A stretch of 59,260 nucleotides of DNA. Source: Dehalococcoidia bacterium (GTDB taxonomy: Bacteria > Chloroflexota > Dehalococcoidia > DSTF01 > JALHUB01). The stretch spans positions 1 through 59,260 of the forward strand of contig DAOULP010000225.1 of NCBI GenBank assembly GCA_034420175.1, given 5' to 3'. Below, in pieces: positions 20,561 through 57,015 of this stretch (within the stretch, counting starts at the first letter, position 1; every line of letters begins with the position of its first letter). A model generated the notes under the pieces. It was not told where the DNA came from. It searched no databases and saw nothing but the letters and a program-made list of their open reading frames with translations. Both the position numbers and the translations under genes were made by a program.

Positions 20561-21229
20561 ATGTCCCCTGCAGACAAGCTGGTCGACGAGATACGTCGCG
20601 ATCTCAGAGAGGTGGAGGTCCTCATCGCCGGGCACCCGTATCTCCAGGCCCTGGAGCAGGGACGCATCGCCCGCGAGAAGCTGCGCATCGTCGCCGGCGA
20701 GCAGTATCACATCGTCGGCAGCGACATGCGGAGCTTCGCCCTGCTGGTGAGCCGCTATGGAGACAGCCCGAGTGGGCGCTTCTTCCTCGACATGGTCCAG
20801 GGAGAGCAATCCGCGTTGGCGGCCCTCTCCTCGTTCGCCACCGCGATCGGGATGACGGAGGACGATCTGCAGGCATACGAGCCCACGCCCGGCGCGCAGG
20901 CGTACCCCTCATACGTGGCCTGGCTGGCTCTCCACGCCTCCGACGCCGAGGTAGCCGGCGCCTTCGTGGTCAACCTGGCCGCTTGGGGAGCGAACTGCGC
21001 CGTCGCCAGCAGGGCCCTCCAGAGTCGCTATGGACTGAGCCGCGAGCAGGTGGAGTTCTTCGAGCTCTTCGCTGCGCCGTCGCCTGAGTTCGAGAAGGCG
21101 GCCCTGGACTTGGTCGAGGTCGGCCTGGCTCGTGGGGTGGAGCCGCGCCTGATCGGTCGAGCCGGCCGCATGCTTCAGGGATACGAGTTGCTCTTCTGGG
21201 ACACGGTGCATTCCGCTTCCAGGGAGTAG
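20561..21229 (+). CDS. TenA/THI-4/PQQC family protein, non-Cys (TenA_E-like)
   Basis: HPYL...GEQY...ELLFWD; VNL in place of the catalytic PC motif. Confidence 0.8.
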   Translation: MSPADKLVDEIRRDLREVEVLIAGHPYLQALEQGRIAREKLRIVAGEQYHIVGSDMRSFALLVSRYGDSPSGRFFLDMVQGEQSALAALSSFATAIGMTEDDLQAYEPTPGAQAYPSYVAWLALHASDAEVAGAFVVNLAAWGANCAVASRALQSRYGLSREQVEFFELFAAPSPEFEKAALDLVEVGLARGVEPRLIGRAGRMLQGYELLFWDTVHSASRE

Positions 21230-21904
21230 GTGATGGCAAGGAGCTTCTCGCAGCGATTGCGGGAGAAGGCTGATGCAATCTGGGAGGCCCAGCACCGCCA
21301 CCCGTTCGTGCGCGGCATTGGCGAGGGCACGCTGGACCTGGAGTCATTCAAGTTCTGGGTCCGCCAGGACTACCTGTTCCTCGTCGAGTACGCCCGTGTG
21401 CTCGGCCTGGCCGTGGCCAAGTCCCCCGACTTGGACACCATGACCCGATTCGCCGGCCTCCTGGACGAGACCCTGAGAGTAGAGATGAGCCTCCACCGCT
21501 CCTACGCCGCCGAGTTCGGCATCTCCGAACATGAGCTTGAGCAAGAGGTGATGGCGCCGGCGACCCGTGCGTACTCGGACTTCCTCGGGCGCACCGCCGC
21601 ACTGGGCGACTTCCCGGAGCTGGTGGCGGCGTTGACTCCCTGCATGTGGGGCTTCTGTGAGATCGGGCAGCGGCTGGCCGCTGGTCCGCAGCCCGCCGAC
21701 GACCGCTACCGCCGCTGGATCGAGATGTACAGCGCCCCGGAGTTCGCCGAGCTGGCCGCCTGGTGCCGCGAACTCCTGGACCGGCTCGCGGCCGGCCTCG
21801 ATTCAGAGGGGCGGCGTCGCCTGGAGCAGGCCTTCCTCACCAGCAGCCGCCAGGAGTATCTGTTCTGGGAGGCCGCCTACCGATGGCAGGGCTGGCCGGT
21901 CTGA
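21230..21904 (+). CDS. tenA: Thiaminase II / aminopyrimidine aminohydrolase
   Basis: HPFV, QDYLF, LTPCMWGF (catalytic Cys), WIEMY, EYLFWE. Confidence 0.92.
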   Translation: MMARSFSQRLREKADAIWEAQHRHPFVRGIGEGTLDLESFKFWVRQDYLFLVEYARVLGLAVAKSPDLDTMTRFAGLLDETLRVEMSLHRSYAAEFGISEHELEQEVMAPATRAYSDFLGRTAALGDFPELVAALTPCMWGFCEIGQRLAAGPQPADDRYRRWIEMYSAPEFAELAAWCRELLDRLAAGLDSEGRRRLEQAFLTSSRQEYLFWEAAYRWQGWPV

Positions 21905-22589: not shown

Positions 22590-23750
22590 GTGAGAAGACG
22601 AACCATCGGCCTTAGTCTGCTCATGATCGGCCTCGTCGTAGGTCTGCTGAGCATCGGCAGCTGGGCTGTCTTCAACGACACGGAGACCGCGGGGTCCTAT
22701 ACGGCGACTGCGGGGGGCCTGGATCTGGAGCTGGACGCGACGCAGGTCGTGCCAGCCGAGATCTCGGACCTCAAGCCATCCGACTGGCACTACCTTGGGC
22801 CCTTCGAGCTCCACAACGCGGGGGGCAACGCGGGTGTGCTGGACCTGCACTTTGCCAACATCGTCGACTCCGGCGGCGACCTGACTGACCCGGAGGAGGC
22901 GGCCCAGTACGCTGGCGCCATCGACGACATCAGCAACTGGATAGATGTCGACTGGTGTGTCGACGCTGTTCTGAACGGATCGCGAGACTGCAACGGTCCG
23001 ATAATCGGGAAGCTGGGGGAGCTCGAGAGCCAAGTCATCGACCTCGGCGTTACCCTGCAACCGAGCGACCGCGTCGAGCTCTGGCTGTCGTTCCACCTCG
23101 AGACGGAGGCCGGAAACGAGTACCAGGGTGACCAGAGCACGTTTGACATCGAGTTCACGCTCCACCAAGCGAACCTGGGTGCGCTGGGCCTTCCGGCCGG
23201 CACCGCCTGCGTCCGGCTGGAGAACAAGGACACGACGACCTGGGATCCCATCCTTGGCGATGCTCTGTATGGCTCTGTGTGCTACGGCGTCGACGGCAAT
23301 GGCGACCTCGTGGTACTGCTGGAAGCCAGCGGGCTGGACGACAGCAAGTACTACCAGATCGGCATGACCGGCCCGGACAGTTGCTCGGACACCGATGACC
23401 AACTGGCCAGCGGCACGCAGCAGTACCCCGACTTCGACAGCCACTTCTGGGTGGCTGGCGCGCCGGCAAGTACGTGCACAACCGTCGGCTTCGGGTTCCA
23501 CAACTTCGCCTACGAGCAGCCGGTGGGTGGGATGATCCAGCAGACCTACACCATCAACAACGCTGGCGTCCCCGACCCGGCCGACAGCACGGACGTGGTT
23601 GCGAGCCACCCGGCCCTGCCCAGCGGCGTCTACACTGGCGTGAAGTTCCTTGTCAAGGAAGTTCCGCCTGGATTCCCGCCGCCACCGTGGCCAGCCACGT
23701 ACACATCGGTCTTGATGGAGATGAACACGCTGAGCTTCAACCTCCCGTAG
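22590..23750 (+). CDS. TasA/CalY (camelysin-like) SipW-dependent secreted protein with an extra C-terminal domain
   Basis: SipW-type signal GSWAVFNDTE; LKPSD...HNAG; AGNEYQGDQSTFDIEFTLHQ. Confidence 0.85.
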   Translation: MRRRTIGLSLLMIGLVVGLLSIGSWAVFNDTETAGSYTATAGGLDLELDATQVVPAEISDLKPSDWHYLGPFELHNAGGNAGVLDLHFANIVDSGGDLTDPEEAAQYAGAIDDISNWIDVDWCVDAVLNGSRDCNGPIIGKLGELESQVIDLGVTLQPSDRVELWLSFHLETEAGNEYQGDQSTFDIEFTLHQANLGALGLPAGTACVRLENKDTTTWDPILGDALYGSVCYGVDGNGDLVVLLEASGLDDSKYYQIGMTGPDSCSDTDDQLASGTQQYPDFDSHFWVAGAPASTCTTVGFGFHNFAYEQPVGGMIQQTYTINNAGVPDPADSTDVVASHPALPSGVYTGVKFLVKEVPPGFPPPPWPATYTSVLMEMNTLSFNLP

Positions 23751-23763
23751 GCTGGGAAGCAGC

Positions 23764-23796
23764 GGCAGGTGGGGCGGCAGCGCCGTCCCACCTGCC
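23764..23796 (+). terminator. 15-bp intercistronic hairpin between the tasA-like gene and sipW
   Basis: GGCAGGTGGGGCGGC-AGC-GCCGTCCCACCTGCC. Confidence 0.6.
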
Positions 23797-23805
23797 AGTC
23801 AATGC

Positions 23806-24609
23806 ATGAGGTACTTCAGAACCGGCGCCAAGCTGGCCGCGGCCCTCGCCAGGACGCTTGTCTATGCCGTCCTGAGCCTCTCTGTGCTGGCTGTCCTGGC
23901 CATCGTGGTGCTCCCCCGGATCTCGGGGATTCGATTCGCCGCCGTTCTCAGTGGCAGCATGCAGCCGGAGGTGGCCACGGGAGACCTGATCGTGGCCTGG
24001 CCGGTAGATCCAACGCAGATCGAACTAGGCGACGTGATCCTGTTTCGCTCGCCTTCGGACCCCGGCGCGAAGGTCGCCCACCGTGTCGTGGAAATCGACG
24101 CCGACGGGAGCTCCCTGGCCTTCGTCACCAAGGGCGACGCCAACCAGTCTCGGGACCGTCTGCCGGTGCCCGCAGGGCGCGTCCTCGGCAGGGTGCAGTT
24201 CCACCTACCGCTTCTTGGTCACGTGATCCGCCAGATGAATGAACCCCTGATGTTCCTCCTCGCCTTGGGAGTCCCCGGGGCCTTCATCATTGCCGGTGAG
24301 ATGTGGAACATCGTGAGGGCGCTCAAGGGCGACAGGTCTAGGGAGCCCGGCATCGATCTGACCAGGGGGCACGCCAGTGAGGCGCCGGAGCGTCCGCCGG
24401 TGCCCGCGCGCGCCATGGCGGGCAGGTTCTGGTTCCACGCAGCGCTTCTTCGTCACGTCATCCGGCAGATCACGAGACTCATGGCCTTGCTCATCGTCCT
24501 GGCGGTGCCGGTGACCTTCATCATTGCTGGGGCAGCATGGGGCATCGTCAGGGCGCTCAAGCCAGACAATTCCAGGGAACTCGGCGCAGAGCCAGGGAGC
24601 GACCAGTGA
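23806..24609 (+). CDS. sipW: Signal peptidase I, SipW/S26B (ER-type)
   Basis: LSGSMQP (Ser), GDLIV, VAHRVV (His), FVTKGDAN. Confidence 0.9.
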   Translation: MRYFRTGAKLAAALARTLVYAVLSLSVLAVLAIVVLPRISGIRFAAVLSGSMQPEVATGDLIVAWPVDPTQIELGDVILFRSPSDPGAKVAHRVVEIDADGSSLAFVTKGDANQSRDRLPVPAGRVLGRVQFHLPLLGHVIRQMNEPLMFLLALGVPGAFIIAGEMWNIVRALKGDRSREPGIDLTRGHASEAPERPPVPARAMAGRFWFHAALLRHVIRQITRLMALLIVLAVPVTFIIAGAAWGIVRALKPDNSRELGAEPGSDQ

Positions 24610-25928
24610 ACCGTTCCCTCAGGGTGCGCGTCTCGGTCCCCGGCGGTGTGCTGGTCCTGGCCGCCCTTGGCGTCCTGGTGCTGTCGCGGGTCGGGGGGGC
24701 CTACGGCCTCTTCTCGGACACCGAGAGGGCCTCTGGGTTCCTGGCTGCCTCCGCCGACTTTCCCCCGCTGCCCGCCACTGTGGACATCGACCCCGACACC
24801 CTCAACCCGGAGAGCGAGGGCTACTTCGTCACGGCCTACGTCGAGCTGCCCGAGCCGTGGGACGTGGCGGACATCGATGTCTCCACGGTGAGGCTGGCGG
24901 TCCAGGGCGAAGCCGCCACCGTTTCGGCCGAGAACCATCCGACCGAGCTCGGCGACCACGATGGAGACGGCATCGCCGACGCCATGGTCAAGTTCCACCG
25001 CCAGGCGGCGCTGGGCCTGTTCGAAGGGACGTTCGGGCCAGTCACCACCAGGGTGACGGGCCAGATCGGCAATCGAACCTTCCAGGGCACCTGCACGGTC
25101 AACGTCCTTGACCCGCCGCCCGCGATGCCGTCTCCTTCTGCCACGCCCGCGCTAACAAGTACCGCGACGGCAACGGCCACCCCGGCGCTTTCCTTCTCGC
25201 CCACGGCTACAGCCGCCCCGGCGGAGGCGTCGCCCACGGAGGAGCCCACCGCGACAGCCACGGTGCCCGAGGACGGTGTGACCTCGCCCACGCAACTGAC
25301 GTGCGCCAGGCTCAACCTTTTCGAGCGGCGGATGGAATGGCTGCCGGCGTCCCACGTTGACCGCTACGTCCTCTATCACGATGGCCCCTTCGGCAGCGAT
25401 GCCTTCGACGAGGTTGCACAGGTAGACAGCCCTGCCACCACCTATGACGACGTCTCTCCCAGCTTCTTCCACCACCGCTGGTATGTGGCCAGCATGGTGG
25501 GTACCTGGGAAAGCGGCTCTAGCCACAGCCTTGAGGTACACTGCCGACCGACCGTCTACTTCCCCGCCCCCCGTGGCCTCAACGGCAGTAGCCACGACTG
25601 GCAGCGGACCGTCAGGCTGACCTGGGAACCCGTGGCGGGGGCGGTTCGCTACGGCGTCTTCCGCGCCGCGCAGAGCGGCGGGCCGTACGAAATGGTGGCA
25701 CTTGTTGAGCGTGCAGGCTACGGCGACAACGCCGTCAGCGACGGTGTCACGTACTACTACGTCGTCGTGGCCCTGGACGCCGCCGGAAATGAGTCGGACC
25801 CCAGCGATGAACTCGCTGTGGCATACGTAGCTCCCACACCTTCGCCCACCCCTACTCCCACGGCTGCTGTCACGGCGACACCTTCCTCCACACCTGAGGC
25901 GAGCGCCACGGCCACGGCGCCGCCCTAG
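24606..25928 (+). CDS. SipW-dependent secreted protein with Thr/Pro linkers and fibronectin type III-like domains
   Basis: GTG overlaps the sipW stop; GGAYGLFSDTE signal; VRYGVFRAAQSGGPYE and YYYVVVALDAAGNES FN3 motifs. Confidence 0.8.
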   Translation: MNRSLRVRVSVPGGVLVLAALGVLVLSRVGGAYGLFSDTERASGFLAASADFPPLPATVDIDPDTLNPESEGYFVTAYVELPEPWDVADIDVSTVRLAVQGEAATVSAENHPTELGDHDGDGIADAMVKFHRQAALGLFEGTFGPVTTRVTGQIGNRTFQGTCTVNVLDPPPAMPSPSATPALTSTATATATPALSFSPTATAAPAEASPTEEPTATATVPEDGVTSPTQLTCARLNLFERRMEWLPASHVDRYVLYHDGPFGSDAFDEVAQVDSPATTYDDVSPSFFHHRWYVASMVGTWESGSSHSLEVHCRPTVYFPAPRGLNGSSHDWQRTVRLTWEPVAGAVRYGVFRAAQSGGPYEMVALVERAGYGDNAVSDGVTYYYVVVALDAAGNESDPSDELAVAYVAPTPSPTPTPTAAVTATPSSTPEASATATAPP

Positions 25929-35185: not shown

Positions 35186-36064
35186 ATGAGGATCACCGCC
35201 CGGGCCCCGGTGCGGATCGACCTGGCGGGAGGCTGGACGGACGTCCACCACTTCGCCGACCGCGACGGCGGCGCCGTCCTCAACGCAGCGATTGCTCGTC
35301 ACGTGCGCGGCGAGTTGACCCGCGACCGGGGCCGCTTCCACGTCAGCTACGAGACCAACGTTCCCGCGGGGGCCGGGCTGGGCGCCTCCGCCGCCTTCAA
35401 CGTCGTCTGGCTGGCCCTCGTGAACGCGGCCATGGGCCGACGACCCTCGCCGGAGGAGCTGGCGGAGCAGGCCTACCGGTTGGAGGGCCTGTTGGGAGTC
35501 ACCGGCGGCAAGCAGGACCAGTACGCCGCCGCCCTGGGTGGCCTTAACCTGCTTCGATTCCAAGAGGGCGTCGTGCGGGTCGAACGATTGTCGCCCAGCG
35601 AGGGCACCATGCGCGCGCTCCAGCAACGGCTGGTCCTCGCCTACAGCGGCGAGTCGCGTCTCTCCGGCGACATCCACGAGCGGGTCTGGGGCGGCTACCT
35701 CTCAGGCGAGAAGGGGGTGGCGGACGCCCTGCGCCAGCTCAGGGCCATCGCTTTCGAGATGAGAGAGGCGCTGCTGGTCGGCGACCTGGCGTCGTTCGGC
35801 GTCCTCCTGGGGGAGAACTGGCGGTGCCAGAAGGCGCTCCACCCGTCGATAACGAACGGCGGCGTGGAGGAGCTCTTCCGAGTGGCGACTGGGTCCGGAG
35901 CTATATCAGGGAAGGCCTGCGGCGCCGGCGGTGGGGGCTGCCTCCTCTTCTGGTGCGAGGAGGGCGCCGCCTCCCGCGTGGCCGCGGCCCTGAGTGAGGC
36001 CGGGGCTCAGCTCATCGATTTCGCGCCGGACGATGAGGGGCTGGTGGTCCGGAGGGAGGGGTAG
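35186..36064 (+). CDS. GHMP kinase (HddA-like sugar-phosphate kinase)
   Basis: APVRIDLAGGWTD, PAGAGLGAS, GGKQDQY, GKACGAGGGG. Confidence 0.9.
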   Translation: MRITARAPVRIDLAGGWTDVHHFADRDGGAVLNAAIARHVRGELTRDRGRFHVSYETNVPAGAGLGASAAFNVVWLALVNAAMGRRPSPEELAEQAYRLEGLLGVTGGKQDQYAAALGGLNLLRFQEGVVRVERLSPSEGTMRALQQRLVLAYSGESRLSGDIHERVWGGYLSGEKGVADALRQLRAIAFEMREALLVGDLASFGVLLGENWRCQKALHPSITNGGVEELFRVATGSGAISGKACGAGGGGCLLFWCEEGAASRVAAALSEAGAQLIDFAPDDEGLVVRREG

Positions 36065-36592
36065 GGGGCAGGGCGGAGGCGATGCCCGTCACTCTCCCAT
36101 CGTGCGGTGGTGATGGCCGCCGTCACTGGCGCTGTCGACCGCTTTGCACACCACCTGCGATGGCGAAGAATGGACCCCCTGCACCGTCTCGAAGCACCTG
36201 CTCACCTTGACCAGAGGAGCCGCGGCACTCCTTCCGCGGTCCCCCTCTTCAGTGTCTTCTCCCCCCAGGCGTCGATCGATGTTGCAGATGAACGGCTGCT
36301 GAACCTTCTTCCGGACACGGCCACAAGTTCCGCCGGACGGCGACATCCTCCCTCTTGGAGTTCGTCCGGTCAGCGGTGGCGGAGCTGGGCGCCAAGCCAA
36401 GCCGCCGACGGAATTCTGTGACAGGGGACCCTCTCTGCCTCGCTGCCGAGAGGATTGGCGACTTCTCATCGCGGGGGAAGTTGCCTCTGAGCGTCAGGTG
36501 ACCTCGCTCACGGGGAAAGCTGATCTCCGCAACAACAGCTTGCCGTCGTCCACGCCTTCGGGAACGAGTGGCGACACGGACAACACCCGCAG

Positions 36593-36820
36593 CTATGACT
36601 CCCCCTCACCTACCGGTTCATGGTACGTGGCAAGAAGAGCTTGGTTCTCGTCGTACCACAGGGGCTTCTCGTTGCGAAGCATGTCCACCATTGCGCTGTA
36701 GTCTTCATATGAGAGGCCGTTGATCTGCCGCGCACCTCCCCCTTGGAAAAGCAGGACGATCGACCCGGACTTCGCGTCATGGCTCCAGGCGAGCTGGTAT
36801 TTCTCGACGCCCTTGTGCAT
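36593..36820 (-). CDS. 75-aa protein homologous to the C-terminal extension of the upstream Tgl
   Basis: AAGGGAGG RBS; 36/71 identical without gaps to Tgl residues 254-324. Confidence 0.85.
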   Translation of the reverse strand: MHKGVEKYQLAWSHDAKSGSIVLLFQGGGARQINGLSYEDYSAMVDMLRNEKPLWYDENQALLATYHEPVGEGES

Positions 36821-36855
36821 TTGCTGCCTCCCTTGATCTCAGGTGCAGGCAACGC

Positions 36856-37830
36856 CTAGGATTCATCCTCCCCAACTGACTCCTTGGCAGTTGTCAGCAC
36901 ATTCTGCAGTTGCTGATAGTACACAGGCTCCTCGTGACGCAGCGTGTCAACGAATGACATGTAGTCAGCGTGAGTCAAGGGATCAATCTGGAGACCCCCT
37001 CCATCCTTGAACAGCAAGACAACGACGCCCGAACTTCTGTCGTGAAGCCAGCCCAACTGATACTCCTTGACCTCGCGCCAGGCGGCATACTTGTCGTACT
37101 TTGCCAGACCGCTGAAATCCGGACGACCTGCTTTGTCCATCAGGTAGGCAGATTTGGTGGCCCCCGGTTTCCGATTCTTGTTCAGCGAAGCAATCATGTC
37201 GCTGGCAGACTCTATGCCGACACCGTGACCGTAGTACTCCCCGTCCCCGAGATCGATCACGTTCTCTCCTTGCCACCACGGGGTCTTCGGGTTCACTTCC
37301 GGGTTCTTGAAGTACCTCCGGTCTCCAGGTAGATAGTCCGGTTCCTTTTGCCAGGTCAACCCAAGGTCTTGGTCAGACTTCCAGCCCTTCAGCACAATTC
37401 CCTGAAATAGCTTGTTGAATATCGCTGGGTGGAGTGATTCCAGAAGCGCCTTATAGTAGACGATCATCATCGCGGTGGCGCACTCGAATGCATACTGCGG
37501 GCCATTCGTGAAGATGTCAGCAATGGCGGCAGAAGGCTCAGTGCCCTGTCTTAGTTGGAACCCGCCAGCGCTGGTGCGATCCCAGAAGGCGGAGTTGCAC
37601 TTCGAGTATTTGAAGGTGGCGAAAGTGGCGCCACTCCCCTTGAGAGCCTTTGCGCTGGCAATGATATTCGTCCTCACCTTCAGTTCGAACTTCAGTTGGT
37701 CTAGCGAACCGTAATCGTGTGCCGTGCCACTTGCGGCCATGCTGTTGATGATATCCCTTCCGGCGCTGCCTGACGGCCACTGCCCGTTGATGCTACCGGG
37801 AGAGACGGTGGTCCCCGAGACTCTGATCAT
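36856..37830 (-). CDS. tgl: Protein-glutamine gamma-glutamyltransferase (Bacillus Tgl-type transglutaminase) with a C-terminal extension
   Basis: Collinear with B. subtilis Tgl as recalled: MIRVSG, LKFELKVR, YAFECATA (Cys117), YFKNPE, QGENVI (Glu189), YGHG (His202), GATKSAYL. Confidence 0.92.
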   Translation of the reverse strand: MIRVSGTTVSPGSINGQWPSGSAGRDIINSMAASGTAHDYGSLDQLKFELKVRTNIIASAKALKGSGATFATFKYSKCNSAFWDRTSAGGFQLRQGTEPSAAIADIFTNGPQYAFECATAMMIVYYKALLESLHPAIFNKLFQGIVLKGWKSDQDLGLTWQKEPDYLPGDRRYFKNPEVNPKTPWWQGENVIDLGDGEYYGHGVGIESASDMIASLNKNRKPGATKSAYLMDKAGRPDFSGLAKYDKYAAWREVKEYQLGWLHDRSSGVVVLLFKDGGGLQIDPLTHADYMSFVDTLRHEEPVYYQQLQNVLTTAKESVGEDES

Positions 37831-38840
37831 CGTGAACCTCCCAGGTCCGCTGCTTTCAGTTGCTCCGCCAATGGAGTGCGAATCCAGGCGTCCCAAGAGT
37901 CGACCTTCTGGTGACGCGTCACGGCTGAGTGCGCGGCAAGACCGACTTTGAGGGGGTCGTCCAGGTTCCTGAATTCCTCTAGAACTCGGCCTTCGTCCTC
38001 CGTCAGGGGGCCCAGTATCTCCCCGGAGTCAATCGATACGAACCTCCCTAGGTACTTGGCCTCCAACACCACAGCATAGGGTGTCGGTTCGCTCGTCATC
38101 TGGAAGCTCTCGCCCTGGAAATACAGAAAAGGTCCGTTCTCTTCAAGCCACTTGTGGAAAGCTCGATACTGCTGTTCGCCCTCGTTGTCTCCGCGTACAT
38201 CTATCCCTGGCACAAAAGCAAGCAGGCGACGCGCTAGTTGACGCTCCCCTGCGCGTGGAGATCGAAGGCGGTCAGCAATCATCAACAGGCTGTGTGGCTG
38301 ACGGGCTTCGAAGAATGCCCACACCAGATCTTCGACGTCCACGTTCACGTTTGTCGCGGCGCGAGCGAAGATCAGCTCCACCACCTTCGGCAACACGTCT
38401 CTGTCTCCGAACGTGACCGTCAAGAGCGAAGCCGTCGCGTCCAGCACGTGGCCATACTGAGGATCCGATGCGAGCTGCGGGACGCCGGTTTCCAGCATCC
38501 ACCTCAACACGGAGTGAACCATTTGCACGTGGTCGGCTATCGATAGGCGGTAGGAAACAGCAGGCGAATCCCCCTCACCCGACAGAATGTCCCTGACAAG
38601 CTCCATTGCGATTCGGTTGCGCTCGTTCAGTCTGCCAGGGAGGGCCAGATTCTCCACATCATCCCGAAGGACAAACAGAGAGGGGAACTGCAAGTCTTCA
38701 TGATTGAGTGCGTCAGTCGCATCTTCTGCGTCACGAGCGGCGGAGTCGCGAAAGAGCTTCTTCAGCGCTTCAACGCCATCATCCTGCCTGACTTGATCCA
38801 GACGGGCTGTTCTGTGCTCGTGCTTGTCTGCTGTCGCCAC
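37827..38840 (-). CDS. Helical hypothetical protein translationally coupled to tgl
   Basis: GAGGGAGG RBS and GTG 38840; ATGA overlap with tgl; motifs DLVWAFFE, FLYFQGESFQ, EAKYL. Confidence 0.8.
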   Translation of the reverse strand: MATADKHEHRTARLDQVRQDDGVEALKKLFRDSAARDAEDATDALNHEDLQFPSLFVLRDDVENLALPGRLNERNRIAMELVRDILSGEGDSPAVSYRLSIADHVQMVHSVLRWMLETGVPQLASDPQYGHVLDATASLLTVTFGDRDVLPKVVELIFARAATNVNVDVEDLVWAFFEARQPHSLLMIADRLRSPRAGERQLARRLLAFVPGIDVRGDNEGEQQYRAFHKWLEENGPFLYFQGESFQMTSEPTPYAVVLEAKYLGRFVSIDSGEILGPLTEDEGRVLEEFRNLDDPLKVGLAAHSAVTRHQKVDSWDAWIRTPLAEQLKAADLGGSR

Positions 38841-38997
38841 GCTGCCCTCCCTCTCGCCTGCTGCCGCGCCACTTCTTCTCACCGGCGCCGACCGGGAAGC
38901 TCCGTGATGCTGTGAGTCTCGGCGCAGGTACGATGACTACCGACACGGGCGTCGAATGACGGCCCGTTCGTCGTTTTGGCGACTCAACGGTGACCGT

Positions 38998-39025
38998 ATT
39001 ATACGCGTTCTCCACCCGTTGACAA
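38998..39025 (-). promoter_or_regulatory. sigma70-like promoter driving the tgl unit
   Basis: Minus strand reads TTGTCA-N16-TATAAT (plus strand TGACAA 39020-25, ATTATA 38998-39003). Confidence 0.55.
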
Positions 39026-39193
39026 GCCCACCCGGCCAAACTCGGCGCCGATCCGCCGTGTTCAGTTCGGCGGGTGAAGGGGGACCATCGGGCTACCAGG
39101 CAGCGACCCCTGTCGCGGGGGACGGCAAGAGGTTCGCGCCTCACCCGAGGCGCGTCGGGATGGGTCTGGCGAAGGGGTCAGCCCTTACTCAGG

Positions 39194-40069
39194 CTAGTCC
39201 GCGGTAGGCGGCTCGATCCTGATGCCGGGGTCGTTGAGGTCCTTGATCTCCATGAAGAAGCTGAGGCTCATCTCGTTGCCTTCTTCGTCCTCGCCGCGGA
39301 CCTCGGCCTCCATGCGGACCGGCCAGTTGCCGTCTTTGGCCACCCACAGATCGTAGGTGATCTCTTCCGGCATGCCCTCCAGGTCCCACATCTCCCCCAT
39401 GTCCTCGCCGAGGAGATCGGCCAGGCGCGTGATCTCGGCCTCGTCCAGGTGGTAGTGAAGGGTGTCGACGCCGTTCATTGTCTCCTCATCGGCTCCCAGG
39501 CCGGTCAACTCGGGAATGGAGAAGCCCTCGCAGATGTCCGAGGTGAAGCTCATGTCTCCGCCCTCACCGGCCGTTTCCTGCCACTCTGGGTCGTCGGCCA
39601 GCTTGGTCCACTCCTGGTCGCCGATGGTGATGGTCGTCACCTCGAAGTCACCGAGCTTCATCCGCGCCTCGCTCCGGTCCGGAGCGACGAAGGTGCCCTC
39701 CACGCTCATGTCCGTGAAGCCGGTGAGCAGGGCGCCCATCAAGGGGGCCAGCGCCTCGCCGAACTCATCGAAGCCGTCGCCGGTGATGTCCGCCTCGCTG
39801 GTCGGCTGCGCCTCCTCAGGCCGGTCGATCCCCTCGAACTCCTCCAGTGCCTCCTCGAGGCCCGGGACGTCCATCTTCATGCCCATGGCGAAGCGGTAGC
39901 TCGTGATGTCTCCTGGGACCTGGCACGGGGAGTCGGCCAACGAACCGGTCGCCGTCTTGGCGGGGGACGGAGCCGGCGTCGGCTGTTCGGTGGGTTCGTC
40001 GTCCCCTCCGCCGCAAGCGGCGAACAACAGGCCCAGCAGCGCGATGAGTGCGAGTAGTCGAAGTCTCAT
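39194..40069 (-). CDS. Lipoprotein (LppX/LprAFG/LolA-like beta fold possible)
   Basis: LLFAACGGG lipobox; acidic; ETMNGVDTLHYH and YDLWVAKDGNWPVRME strands. Confidence 0.8.
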   Translation of the reverse strand: MRLRLLALIALLGLLFAACGGGDDEPTEQPTPAPSPAKTATGSLADSPCQVPGDITSYRFAMGMKMDVPGLEEALEEFEGIDRPEEAQPTSEADITGDGFDEFGEALAPLMGALLTGFTDMSVEGTFVAPDRSEARMKLGDFEVTTITIGDQEWTKLADDPEWQETAGEGGDMSFTSDICEGFSIPELTGLGADEETMNGVDTLHYHLDEAEITRLADLLGEDMGEMWDLEGMPEEITYDLWVAKDGNWPVRMEAEVRGEDEEGNEMSLSFFMEIKDLNDPGIRIEPPTAD

Positions 40070-53561: not shown

Positions 53562-53684
53562 CAGCGGTGCATCACCGGGAACGCCGCAGCCGGGACCCGG
53601 CCCGGGGCCCCTGCCCTGACTCGTGCGACCGCCGCACTGGTGAGACTAATCCGTCGCCAAGACAACGATTCTGAGGTCGGCCAC

Positions 53685-54332
53685 ATGGCGAGCGAATCGG
53701 TCCCTGTCGTCCGCGGCCTCTACGTAATCGTCGATCCCGAGCAGACGCGGGGCCGCGACGCCGTCGAGGTGACGCGCCAGGCCCTCGACGGCGGTGCCTC
53801 CATCATCCAGTGGCGCGACAAGGCCCGTGACAAGGGACAGCAGCTTCCGCAGTTGCGGGCCGTCGGCGACCTCTGCCGCCGGCACGGGGCCCTCCTCCTC
53901 GTCAACGACCACGCCGACCTCGCCCTCGTCGCCCAGGCCGATGGCGTCCACCTGGGCCAGAAGGACCTGCCGCCCGCCGGCGTCCGCGCTTTCGTGCCGC
54001 CGGCCTTCATCATCGGGGTGTCCACGAACAACGTGGAGGAGGCGCGCCGCGCTCAGGCCGACGGCGCCTCCTACGTGGCGGTGGGCGCACTCTTCGCCAC
54101 GGGCTCGAAGAGTGACACGCGGCCGGCCAGCCCCGAGCGGCTGCGGGAGGTGAAGCAGGCGGTGTCGCTGCCGGTGGTGGGCATCGGTGGGATAGACGAG
54201 GGCAACATCGACGAGGTGCTGGCGGCGGGCGCCGATGCTGTCGCCGTGATCAGCGCCGTCACCGGCGCCGGCGACGTGCGGGAGGCGGCGGCGAGGCTGG
54301 CCGCCCATTTCAGGAGCGAAACCGGGACCTAG
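53685..54332 (+). CDS. thiE: Thiamine-phosphate synthase
   Basis: GLYVIVD, IQWRDK, LLVNDH, DGVHLGQKD, SYVAVG, VVGIGGI, VAVISA. Confidence 0.92.
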   Translation: MASESVPVVRGLYVIVDPEQTRGRDAVEVTRQALDGGASIIQWRDKARDKGQQLPQLRAVGDLCRRHGALLLVNDHADLALVAQADGVHLGQKDLPPAGVRAFVPPAFIIGVSTNNVEEARRAQADGASYVAVGALFATGSKSDTRPASPERLREVKQAVSLPVVGIGGIDEGNIDEVLAAGADAVAVISAVTGAGDVREAAARLAAHFRSETGT

Positions 54333-56307: not shown

Positions 56308-57015
56308 CTACGCCTTGGCCGACTCGGCGGCGTCCTTCTCCGAACGGGCCGGGCGCTTGCTCCAGGCCTCGCTCATGGTCTCCACGAGCTGGCGGGCCGC
56401 CGCCTGCGGGTCGTCAGCGCCGAGGATGGCGGAGATGACTGAGGCTCCCTCGCCCCCGGCCTCGATGACCTCCGCCGCGTTGCCGGCCTGCACACCACCG
56501 ACAGCCAGCACCGGGATGGAGAGCGCCTCCGATACCTTCCTCACCAGGTCGGGGCCGGCCGGCTCCACGCCGGGCTTGGACTCTGTCGCGTAGATGGTGC
56601 CGAGCTGCACGTAGTCGGCGCCGCCGCGCTGGGCCTCGATCGCCGCCTCTTCGCTGTGGACGGAGCAGCCGACAAGGGCGTGCTGGCCCAGGAGCAGGCG
56701 CGCGATCGCCACTGGCAGACCGTTCTCCGGCAGGTGGACACCGTCGGCACGAGAGGCCAGCGCGACGTCCAGCCGGTCGTTGATGATGAGGACGGCGCGG
56801 TTTCGCGTCATCTGACGCAGACGGATAGCCAGATCGAGCAGCTCGCCGGCCGGCAGGTCCTTCTCTCGCAACTGGATGACGTTTGCGCCGCCTTTGATGG
56901 CCTCGTCTACCACGGTCTCCAGGGGTGGATCACCGCAGCGATGCCGGTCGGTGATGAGACAGAGCGTGGGGAGGCGCAGCCTGCCGACGCGCGTGACAAC
57001 CGCCGTGGTGATCAA
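56308..57015 (-). CDS. ThiE/TenI-family protein (second thiamine-phosphate synthase or thiazole tautomerase)
   Basis: [33 protein letters not shown]; located between thiG and thiS. Confidence 0.85.

Follow-up and report, generated by a model that had tools for sequence, protein, structure and literature searches.

A Tgl-type transglutaminase with a previously undescribed partner and a paired module on a horizontally acquired island of a high-GC bacterium, and its counterparts in ANME-1 archaea

The closest described relative of the enzyme considered here is Tgl of Bacillus subtilis, a transglutaminase with a Cys116–Glu187 catalytic dyad, a back-up Glu115 and two substrate-docking tunnel entrances (Fernandes et al., PMC6490927), which is produced in active form and is controlled by the location of its substrates (PMC6490927). 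Cross-linking of spore-coat proteins is the only function characterised in this family (PMC6490927, PMC3533761), and Tgl-like genes have been reported only in spore-formers (Galperin et al., PMC3533761), the enzyme so far being treated as sporulation-specific and absent from non-spore-formers (PMC3533761). Here, we analyse a tgl gene found in a 59,260-nucleotide (nt) stretch of DNA deposited as that of a Dehalococcoidia bacterium (contig DAOULP010000225.1 of assembly GCA_034420175.1; the whole stretch is referred to as the window) and in archaea of the ANME-1 group (Methanophagales). In both settings, the gene is part of a three-gene unit that encodes a partner protein, Tgl with an additional C-terminal domain that we call the module, and a free copy of that module. 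The enzyme is of a known kind; the novelty lies in the partner and the module, and in an apparently non-sporulating and an archaeal setting, and the analysis defines partner and module as two hitherto unnamed protein families.

The window Tgl matches the Pfam family PF20085 over profile positions 1 to 244 of 245 (E = 2.7e-100, 335 bits with a cut-off of 23.7) and the NCBIfam equivalog NF002869 with 336.5 bits (cut-off 307), in agreement with the initial annotation of this DNA, made from the letters alone, which had named it a spore-coat-type Tgl. The best solved structures are PDB 7C9J (E = 5e-69) and the B. subtilis enzyme (4P8I/4PA5; E = 3e-53 for 4P8I), with which the window Tgl aligns over residues 1 to 250. 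Cys117, Glu189 and His202, the residues singled out at that earlier stage, are present and align with Cys116, Glu187 and His200 of 4P8I, and the back-up glutamate is retained as Glu116 (Glu115 in B. subtilis). The tunnel-entrance residues are likewise kept, the full set of further pairs being Phe69 with Phe70, Trp149 with Trp150, Tyr171 with Tyr173, Trp184 with Trp186 and Asn188 with Asn190. C117, E189, E116 and H202 are invariant in 120 homologues, and N190, F70, Y173 and W186 are invariant or nearly so in the same set. The window Tgl presumably carries out the thioester cross-linking chemistry of its B. subtilis counterpart.

The two enzymes differ in architecture and in setting. The window Tgl has 324 amino acids (aa), as compared with ≈245 to 285 aa for the minimal single-domain enzyme, the excess being the 75-aa C-terminal domain, and it comes with a coupled partner gene and a free module copy. 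Its gene resides in a bacterium of 67% GC that has F420 genes, is preceded by a sigma-70-like rather than a sigma-K promoter, and has no visible sporulation context; nothing in the window resembles a coat gene (no search was aimed at the known substrates GerQ, SafA and YeeK). Long-form Tgl is rare: among the 120 best homologue clusters, 5 contain it, and these merge into one when clustered at 50% identity. None of the examined Tgl sequences of Bacillota has the fused module. In a neighbour-joining tree without support values, the window Tgl falls in a 10-member clade that also contains the ANME-1 long forms, metagenome sequences and a small number of short forms; the neighbouring group is made up of Aneurinibacillus/Bacillales sequences, partner-linked copies among them. 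As a side observation, with domains judged by eye from the sequences, P0252 (477 aa), P0321 (1418 aa) and ≈100 further multi-domain proteins appear to end in a more distant Tgl-like domain (E = 1e-40 to 1e-22); the N-terminal region of P0252 is rich in Ala, Pro and Thr, and the N-terminus of P0321 is hydrophobic and signal-peptide-like.

All three genes lie on the minus strand (Table 1), co-oriented as first described and with the same product lengths (337, 324 and 75 aa), and an independent gene caller applied to the public contig returns identical products. The sequence also bears out the ATGA overlap reported earlier, in which the TGA stop of the partner gene and the ATG start of tgl are shared. 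A longer alternative partner open reading frame (ORF) of 351 aa begins with a GTG at 38882; the 337-aa start is favoured because of the GGGAGGG that precedes it. The Shine–Dalgarno sequence of tgl falls within the last codons of the partner gene, a location that supports translational coupling of the two genes. Its in-frame translation accounts for the Gly-Gly conserved at the C-terminus of the partner family, and a reading of that Gly-Gly as a ubiquitin-like signal was rejected on these grounds. With a Shine–Dalgarno sequence for each ORF and a free module that is 69 to 78% conserved across phyla, we take all three to be real genes. Upstream, a consensus scan of the region, which found three promoter sites with 0.6 expected, places a sigma-70-like promoter whose -35 hexamer coincides with position 39025, the end coordinate given in the initial annotation. 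No structured 5' leader was detected in the window (fold z-score of -1.08, not significant).

The partner is an acidic protein without a sequence match in Pfam, NCBIfam or the PDB. Its AlphaFold2 model (pLDDT 87.8, pTM 0.84) is an all-helical solenoid of ≈20 helices plus one small β-hairpin, a conserved element at residues ≈239–265 (GESFQ...AKYLG), and a Foldseek search of the PDB with this model yielded nothing significant, designed armadillo repeats ranking best (E = 0.08–0.2, TM ≈0.2). A genome scan with a 10-sequence alignment subset located the family in nine species genomes, namely three ANME-1 (Methanophagales) metagenome-assembled genomes (MAGs), Clostridium sp. ZS2-4, two Bacillales MAGs, and genomes of Thermotaleaceae, Lutispora and Eubacteriales. 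In profile searches of genomes and metagenome contigs, tgl lies directly downstream of the partner gene in 15 of 16 distinct loci, an adjacency that holds down to 31% partner identity, and the 4-nt overlap recurs in all six loci with gene calls. The exception is found in Clostridium sp. ZS2-4 (L005:5334-6281), where the partner gene is truncated and the 12-kb locus lacks tgl altogether.

In Lutispora, Thermotaleaceae, Eubacteriales and the Bacillales MAGs (L006–L010, L039–L041), the partner is 31 to 47% identical to that of the window and the gene order and 4-nt overlap are the same, which confirms what the initial annotation had offered as unverified, namely that the upstream family sits beside tgl in clostridia, and extends it to Bacillales. 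Tgl in these Bacillota pairs is short (250–285 aa), with neither a fused nor a free module, and the pairs are themselves uncharacterised. The dependence is one-sided: with 46 homologue clusters for the partner and 1458 for Tgl, the partner needs Tgl, and most tgl genes (≈97%) have no partner. Partner and Tgl form an ancient pair with coupled translation, present at a minority of the tgl loci of Bacillota; the two genes were transferred together to ANME-1 archaea and to the window bacterium. That Tgl traveled with a dedicated partner implies that the two form a self-sufficient cross-linking device that would operate without a spore.

The C-terminal domain of Tgl and the product of the third gene are paralogues. 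Fused and free copies of the window are 49% identical, and a full-length alignment of such copies from 12 family members shows 16 positions that never vary. Homologues of the free module with 69 to 78% identity include those of Anaerolineae and Methanophagales MAGs. The AlphaFold2 model of the free module (pLDDT 89.4) comprises a β-β-β-α-β-β arrangement and ends in an acidic tail, EPVGE(E/G)E; nothing significant was found for it in the PDB, BFVD, Pfam or PHROG, and Foldseek searches of the module (PDB and viral models) and of the partner (PDB) returned nothing below E = 0.04. A role as a ubiquitin-like or Pup-like modifier was considered and rejected in view of the β3-α-β2 order, the lack of a β-grasp match and the tail. 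In a search of 1.84 billion proteins, the module profile, which held five full-length Tgl sequences over 328 positions and whose matches are dominated by Tgl domains, hit 847 clusters (50% identity) at E ≤ 0.001 and added one module protein only, P0330.

Irrespective of the enzyme next to them, free copies share 66% identity with one another, as compared with 47 to 50% with fused copies; because the free copies resemble each other more than they resemble the fused ones, the fused-plus-free pair behaves as a cassette. This cassette is separate from Tgl. In other bacteria, it also serves an M6-like peptidase domain: a 525-aa protein consisting of that domain and a C-terminal module is followed by a free module gene (L012, L016–L018). 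The M6-like domain, which is unrelated to Tgl, matches TIGR03296 below the cut-off (E = 1e-16 to 8e-14), and its zinc motif is degenerate (EExxH rather than HExxH). The order of enzyme-like domain, C-terminal module and free module gene is that of the window, and the free module of L012, from an Anaerolineae MAG, is the closest to that of the window (78%); the M6-like loci differ from the window in that they have no α-solenoid partner. The "fused copy plus free copy" arrangement thus recurs with two unrelated enzyme-type domains.

Several further module loci may be recorded here. The L012 cassette lies amid STAND/AAA ATPase genes. At L020:7541-8207 (also L021–L023), a free 68-aa module, with no fused copy, follows a 103-aa double-glycine-leader peptide with a sub-threshold match to PF10439 (Bacteriocin_IIc; 22 bits); the neighbouring genes, which encode AsmA and an RND efflux pump, indicate a Gram-negative host. 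At L031:1781-4997 and L036:453-2640, a distant module (≈35% identity) is found after tandem phage-tail-collar genes and before an NTP_transf_5 nucleotidyltransferase gene; L031 has three tail-collar-domain genes, with PF07484 confirmed for one. Two module genes stand in tandem at L028:4995-5618, and a second, frameshifted module copy directly follows the free copy at L024:71-568.

The complete unit of partner, Tgl with fused module, and free module is found on the ANME-1 (Methanophagales) contigs L003, L004, L011 and L025, and this answers the question, raised with the initial annotation, of whether the three genes co-occur elsewhere. The architecture is identical to that of the window, with partner, Tgl and module 57 to 58%, ≈66% and 71 to 73% identical, respectively; in L011 (344-1392), the Tgl-fused module is split by a frameshift. 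The archaeal units are native in composition (44% GC, equal to their flanks, on contigs of 42–44% GC), in contrast to that of the window, which lies below its flanks. They are preceded by an archaeal B recognition element (BRE)/TATA-like element in place of a sigma-70-like promoter, which suggests host-adapted expression. Given FmdE, a PGF-CTERM surface protein, the GC match and the conserved BRE/TATA-like element, these contigs look genuinely archaeal. A literature search found no paper that links ANME-1 with a transglutaminase.

The element itself, CGAAAAGTTTATATACTCC, lies ≈95 nt upstream of the partner gene (L003:2600-2700, L004:5900-6000, L043:330-430), and a leader with an inverted repeat, CTACGTTGGATGATTGCGTAG, is conserved in the same three archaeal copies; this conservation stands out because the L004 and L043 deiminases share no more than ≈72 to 76% identity. 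Those deiminases are a further difference from the window, which has none: a gene for a protein-arginine deiminase (631–652 aa) lies directly downstream of the Tgl unit on the ANME-1 contigs and on the related contig L043 (L003:5003-6955, L004:8350-10245, L011:1692-3644, L024:670-2208, L043:3185-5140). The ANME-1 and L043 proteins match PF03068 (PAD) with E = 3e-130, and their PAD_M domain is detectable with Pfam (E = 5e-18), a property described only for those cyanobacterial PADIs that are closest to the animal enzymes (PMC8826395). The same study of PADI evolution dismissed its single archaeal match as a misattribution (PMC8826395); the deiminase-bearing contigs found here carry the archaeal markers listed above (FmdE, PGF-CTERM, BRE/TATA-like promoter).

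In the window, the unit is confined to a 3129-nt island. The GC content of the three genes is 0.570, as compared with 0.671 ± 0.015 (minimum 0.634) in 518 other segments of the same length (z = -6.7), with a trough at 36.5 to 38.9 kb; the lower GC noticed at first is thereby upheld, and the counts then given for two 60-mers (29/60 at 37381 and 44/60 at 35401) are exact. Third-position GC (GC3) of the island genes is 0.65 to 0.74, as compared with 0.851 ± 0.039 (minimum 0.741) for 49 host ORFs. A relative, contig L046 from a sister sample, is 90.4 and 91.5% identical in DNA on the two sides of the island (blastn), and its homology to the window stops exactly at the flanking stop codons (39194 and 36064). 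Gene order is common to both contigs on one flank (CofD, Fno, CofE, methyltransferase, lipoprotein) and on the other (GHMP kinase, 171-aa protein, IlvD). In place of the Tgl unit, L046 has a gene for a 656-aa pyrroloquinoline quinone (PQQ) β-propeller protein (L046:4923-6893). This gene is a local paralogue of the adjacent lipoprotein gene, with which its 5' part shares 64% DNA identity; the slot between lipoprotein and GHMP kinase genes is therefore a variable site. Host-like GC and presence in L046 place the lipoprotein gene outside the island.

No convincing flanking repeats, integrase or tRNA were found at the island borders, and no gene relics in its non-coding parts; the non-coding tail has no Rfam match, no tRNA and no similarity to genes that adjoin the unit elsewhere. 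A 10.4-kb contig from a second assembler, 100% identical and representing the same strain rather than an independent organism, spans both island junctions, which excludes at this site the chimeric contig that would have undone the earlier proposal. The island is strain-specific in this high-GC bacterium and, as that proposal had it, horizontally acquired, on the basis of composition, the absence of the unit from L046 and a Tgl nested among Bacillota sequences. The exact borders, the archaeal relatives and the cassette shared with an M6-like peptidase go beyond what was first noted.

Table 1. Positions of the features discussed (window coordinates unless a contig is given)
Feature	Position	Strand	Remarks
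Strain-specific island, 3129 nt	36065-39193	.	between stop codons of GHMP-kinase gene and lipoprotein gene
Non-coding island tail, 528 nt	36065-36592	.	absent from L046
Free module ORF	36593-36820	minus	75 aa
Shine–Dalgarno GGGAGG of free module	36827-36832	minus	6 nt 5' of ATG; read from sequence
tgl	36856-37830	minus	324 aa
C-terminal module fused to Tgl, residues ≈250-324 plus stop	36856-37083	minus	hmmsearch E = 1e-36, last 75 residues
Tgl catalytic core, residues 1-249 (protein-glutamine gamma-glutamyltransferase)	37084-37830	minus	profile and PDB matches
Partner gene	37827-38840	minus	337 aa, GTG start
Shine–Dalgarno GGGAGG of tgl	37837-37842	minus	within last partner codons (Leu-Gly-Gly-Ser-Arg)
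Shine–Dalgarno GGGAGGG of partner	38845-38851	minus	4 nt 5' of GTG; read from sequence
Sigma-70-like promoter TTGTCA-16 nt-TATAAT	38998-39025	minus	consensus scan, 11/12 matches
Lipoprotein gene with lipobox LFAACGGG	39194-40069		adjoins island upstream; weak match to SCO4651 lipoprotein family, E = 6e-8, below cut-off
M6-like plus module cassettes	L012:6334-8231; L016:6389-8225; L018:738-2574		Anaerolineae MAG (L012), JGI contigs (L016-L018)

The host itself may plausibly be a member of the Chloroflexota. F420 genes together with 67% GC are atypical of Bacillota; the genes of the window include those for the synthesis of F420 and thiamine, for beta-oxidation enzymes and for transporters, with no rRNA or tRNA. 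In tblastn searches against plasmids, CofD matches Thermomicrobium (Chloroflexota) and Miltoncostaea (Actinomycetota) equally well (53%), and the best matches of IlvD are mixed (Deinococcus, Gemmatirosa, Bacillus); clusters of identical sequences for eight housekeeping proteins contained no named members. The likeliest history is that the pair arose in Bacillota, left that phylum as two genes, partner and tgl, and acquired the module cassette inside its present clade. From the intermediate GC3 and the absence of the unit from L046, we infer that the direct donor of the island was a mid-GC organism.

We favour, with about as much belief as doubt, a vegetatively expressed, cytoplasmic cross-linking unit in which the partner serves as client or adaptor and the modules act as a pair. 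The operon would be transcribed from the sigma-70-type promoter in growing cells, and all three products would stay in the cytoplasm; this location is suggested by the acidity of all three proteins (isoelectric points of 4.9–6.1) and by the lack of any signal peptide or membrane segment in partner, Tgl and free module (maximum Kyte-Doolittle 19-residue score ≈1.1), which also speaks against the hardening of a surface layer proposed initially. Tgl would form epsilon-(gamma-glutamyl)lysine cross-links through a Cys117 thioester. Because the partner almost never occurs without Tgl and ≈97% of tgl genes lack it, the partner may well bind Tgl stoichiometrically as its dedicated client or adaptor, serving either as a substrate itself or as a scaffold that presents one. 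The fused module would dock homotypically with the free module and so tether Tgl to an assembly of the free 8-kDa protein, or regulate Tgl through it, the outcome being covalent stabilisation of a specific intracellular protein assembly other than a spore coat.

A partial parallel exists in the B. subtilis inner coat, where, according to PMC6490927 and bioRxiv 10.64898/2026.02.03.703564, the full-length and short forms of SafA, a long and a short protein with a shared domain, co-assemble and are handled by Tgl. The likeness is one of analogy: the sequences are unrelated, it is the enzyme that carries the shared domain in the window, and nothing shows the module to be a substrate. If the proposal is right, such units are compact, always-active transglutaminases with built-in partner proteins and may interest users of protein ligation.

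Several observations pull the other way. Neither predicted fold matches a known function, so the roles of partner and module are read from gene arrangement, and the sigma-70-like promoter is known only from its match to the consensus. At L043 and L044, which are the closest short-form loci, Tgl works without any module. Distant module relatives (32–49% identity) are solitary, in the context of tail-collar proteins, pentapeptide repeats or a bacteriocin-like peptide, and the module may hence function independently of any fused partner. The intermediate GC3 of the island also fits poorly with a recent transfer from a 44%-GC donor.

A role in conflict or defence had been suggested at the outset, with Tgl as a toxic cross-linker directed at phage or at the cell itself (abortive infection) and the free module as antidote or regulator of the fused copy. 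The variable slot with its other cargo in the ≈90%-identical L046 and the mobility of the module cassette between enzymes and phyla would suit such a role, as would the free module behind the sub-threshold PF10439 peptide, another near a GmrSD nuclease, and the STAND/AAA ATPase genes around the L012 cassette. Database searches do not sustain it: partner, Tgl and module have no match in PADLOC-DB 2.0 at E ≤ 0.1 and no PHROG match of note, and 2.9 million viral contigs contain no relatives. The flanking window genes are housekeeping ones (F420 synthesis, IlvD, GHMP kinase), the partner–Tgl pair lies amid ordinary genes in Bacillota, and Tgl, made in active form in B. subtilis (PMC6490927), is not known as toxic. 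We regard defence as unlikely.

The characterised function of the family points in a different direction, to a dormant or encased stage of the host and of ANME-1 in which Tgl hardens a protein layer and the partner is a coat-like substrate. Consistent with this, spore-coat cross-linking is the sole precedent (PMC6490927, PMC3533761), the partner–Tgl pair is common to spore-forming Clostridia and Bacillales, and a scan of the Bacillota copies found weak sigma-K-like -10 elements upstream of some of them (L010 and L039 match the sigma-K/sigma-E consensus with one mismatch). In the window, by contrast, the promoter is sigma-70-like, and no sporulation gene was seen in the ≈55 kb that were annotated, as the initial annotation had remarked. 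The unit does not belong to a core developmental program, since L046 is without it, and the three proteins lack export signals. Furthermore, archaea are not known to form endospores. A resting-cell envelope accordingly strikes us as quite improbable.

A third possibility, to which we give equally little credence, is that the unit is an unselected passenger, recently arrived, neither expressed nor used, and bound to decay. Its presence in one strain and not in L046, the absence of any function that could be linked to neighbouring genes, and the decayed copies elsewhere (the truncated partner without Tgl of L005 and the frameshifted fused module of L011) are what one would expect of a passenger. 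Against this stand three intact ORFs with a ribosome-binding site each, the retention of every functional Tgl residue and a near-consensus promoter of the host type. The GC3 of the island genes, moreover, lies well above that of the low-GC relatives (42–49% overall GC) and suggests long residence or a mid-GC donor.

The free 8-kDa module might instead be a portable block or tag that Tgl couples, by epsilon-(gamma-glutamyl)lysine bonds, either to itself or to a target, for instance the partner, with the fused copy as recognition handle. Nearly all free modules have a Lys at position 3 or 4 in their short N-terminal tail, and two glutamines, Gln9 and Gln32, are invariant; these residues are compatible with such a role without testing it, and we consider it a slim prospect. 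If true, the system would be a transglutaminase-based means of conjugation or polymerisation common to bacteria and archaea, and a handle-plus-free-copy device adopted by the M6-like domain as well. Finally, it is quite improbable that the NlpC/P60-type core mainly deamidates glutamines or cleaves isopeptide or peptide bonds, for instance in processing the partner or module: transglutaminases deamidate when an amine is unavailable (PMC11087917), the second host domain of the module is peptidase-like (M6), and no conserved, exposed Gln-Lys pair was identified in partner or module, but the window Tgl scores at equivalog level with the characterised cross-linking Tgl, both tunnel entrances are conserved, including the Lys-side residues F70, W186 and H202, and the degenerate M6-like zinc motif makes a shared theme of hydrolysis far from obvious.

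Three further features of the window lie outside the island. At 22590-25928, ≈11 kb from it, three genes are consecutive: one for a TasA/camelysin-like Peptidase_M73, one with a weak match to S26 signal peptidases, and a 440-aa ORF for which Pfam has no match. Their layout resembles that of the tapA-sipW-tasA fibre operon. Two TENA/THI-4 genes adjoin one another at 20561-21904, and a paralogous pair of TMP-TENI thiamine-phosphate synthase genes is found at 53640-54332 and 56308-57015.

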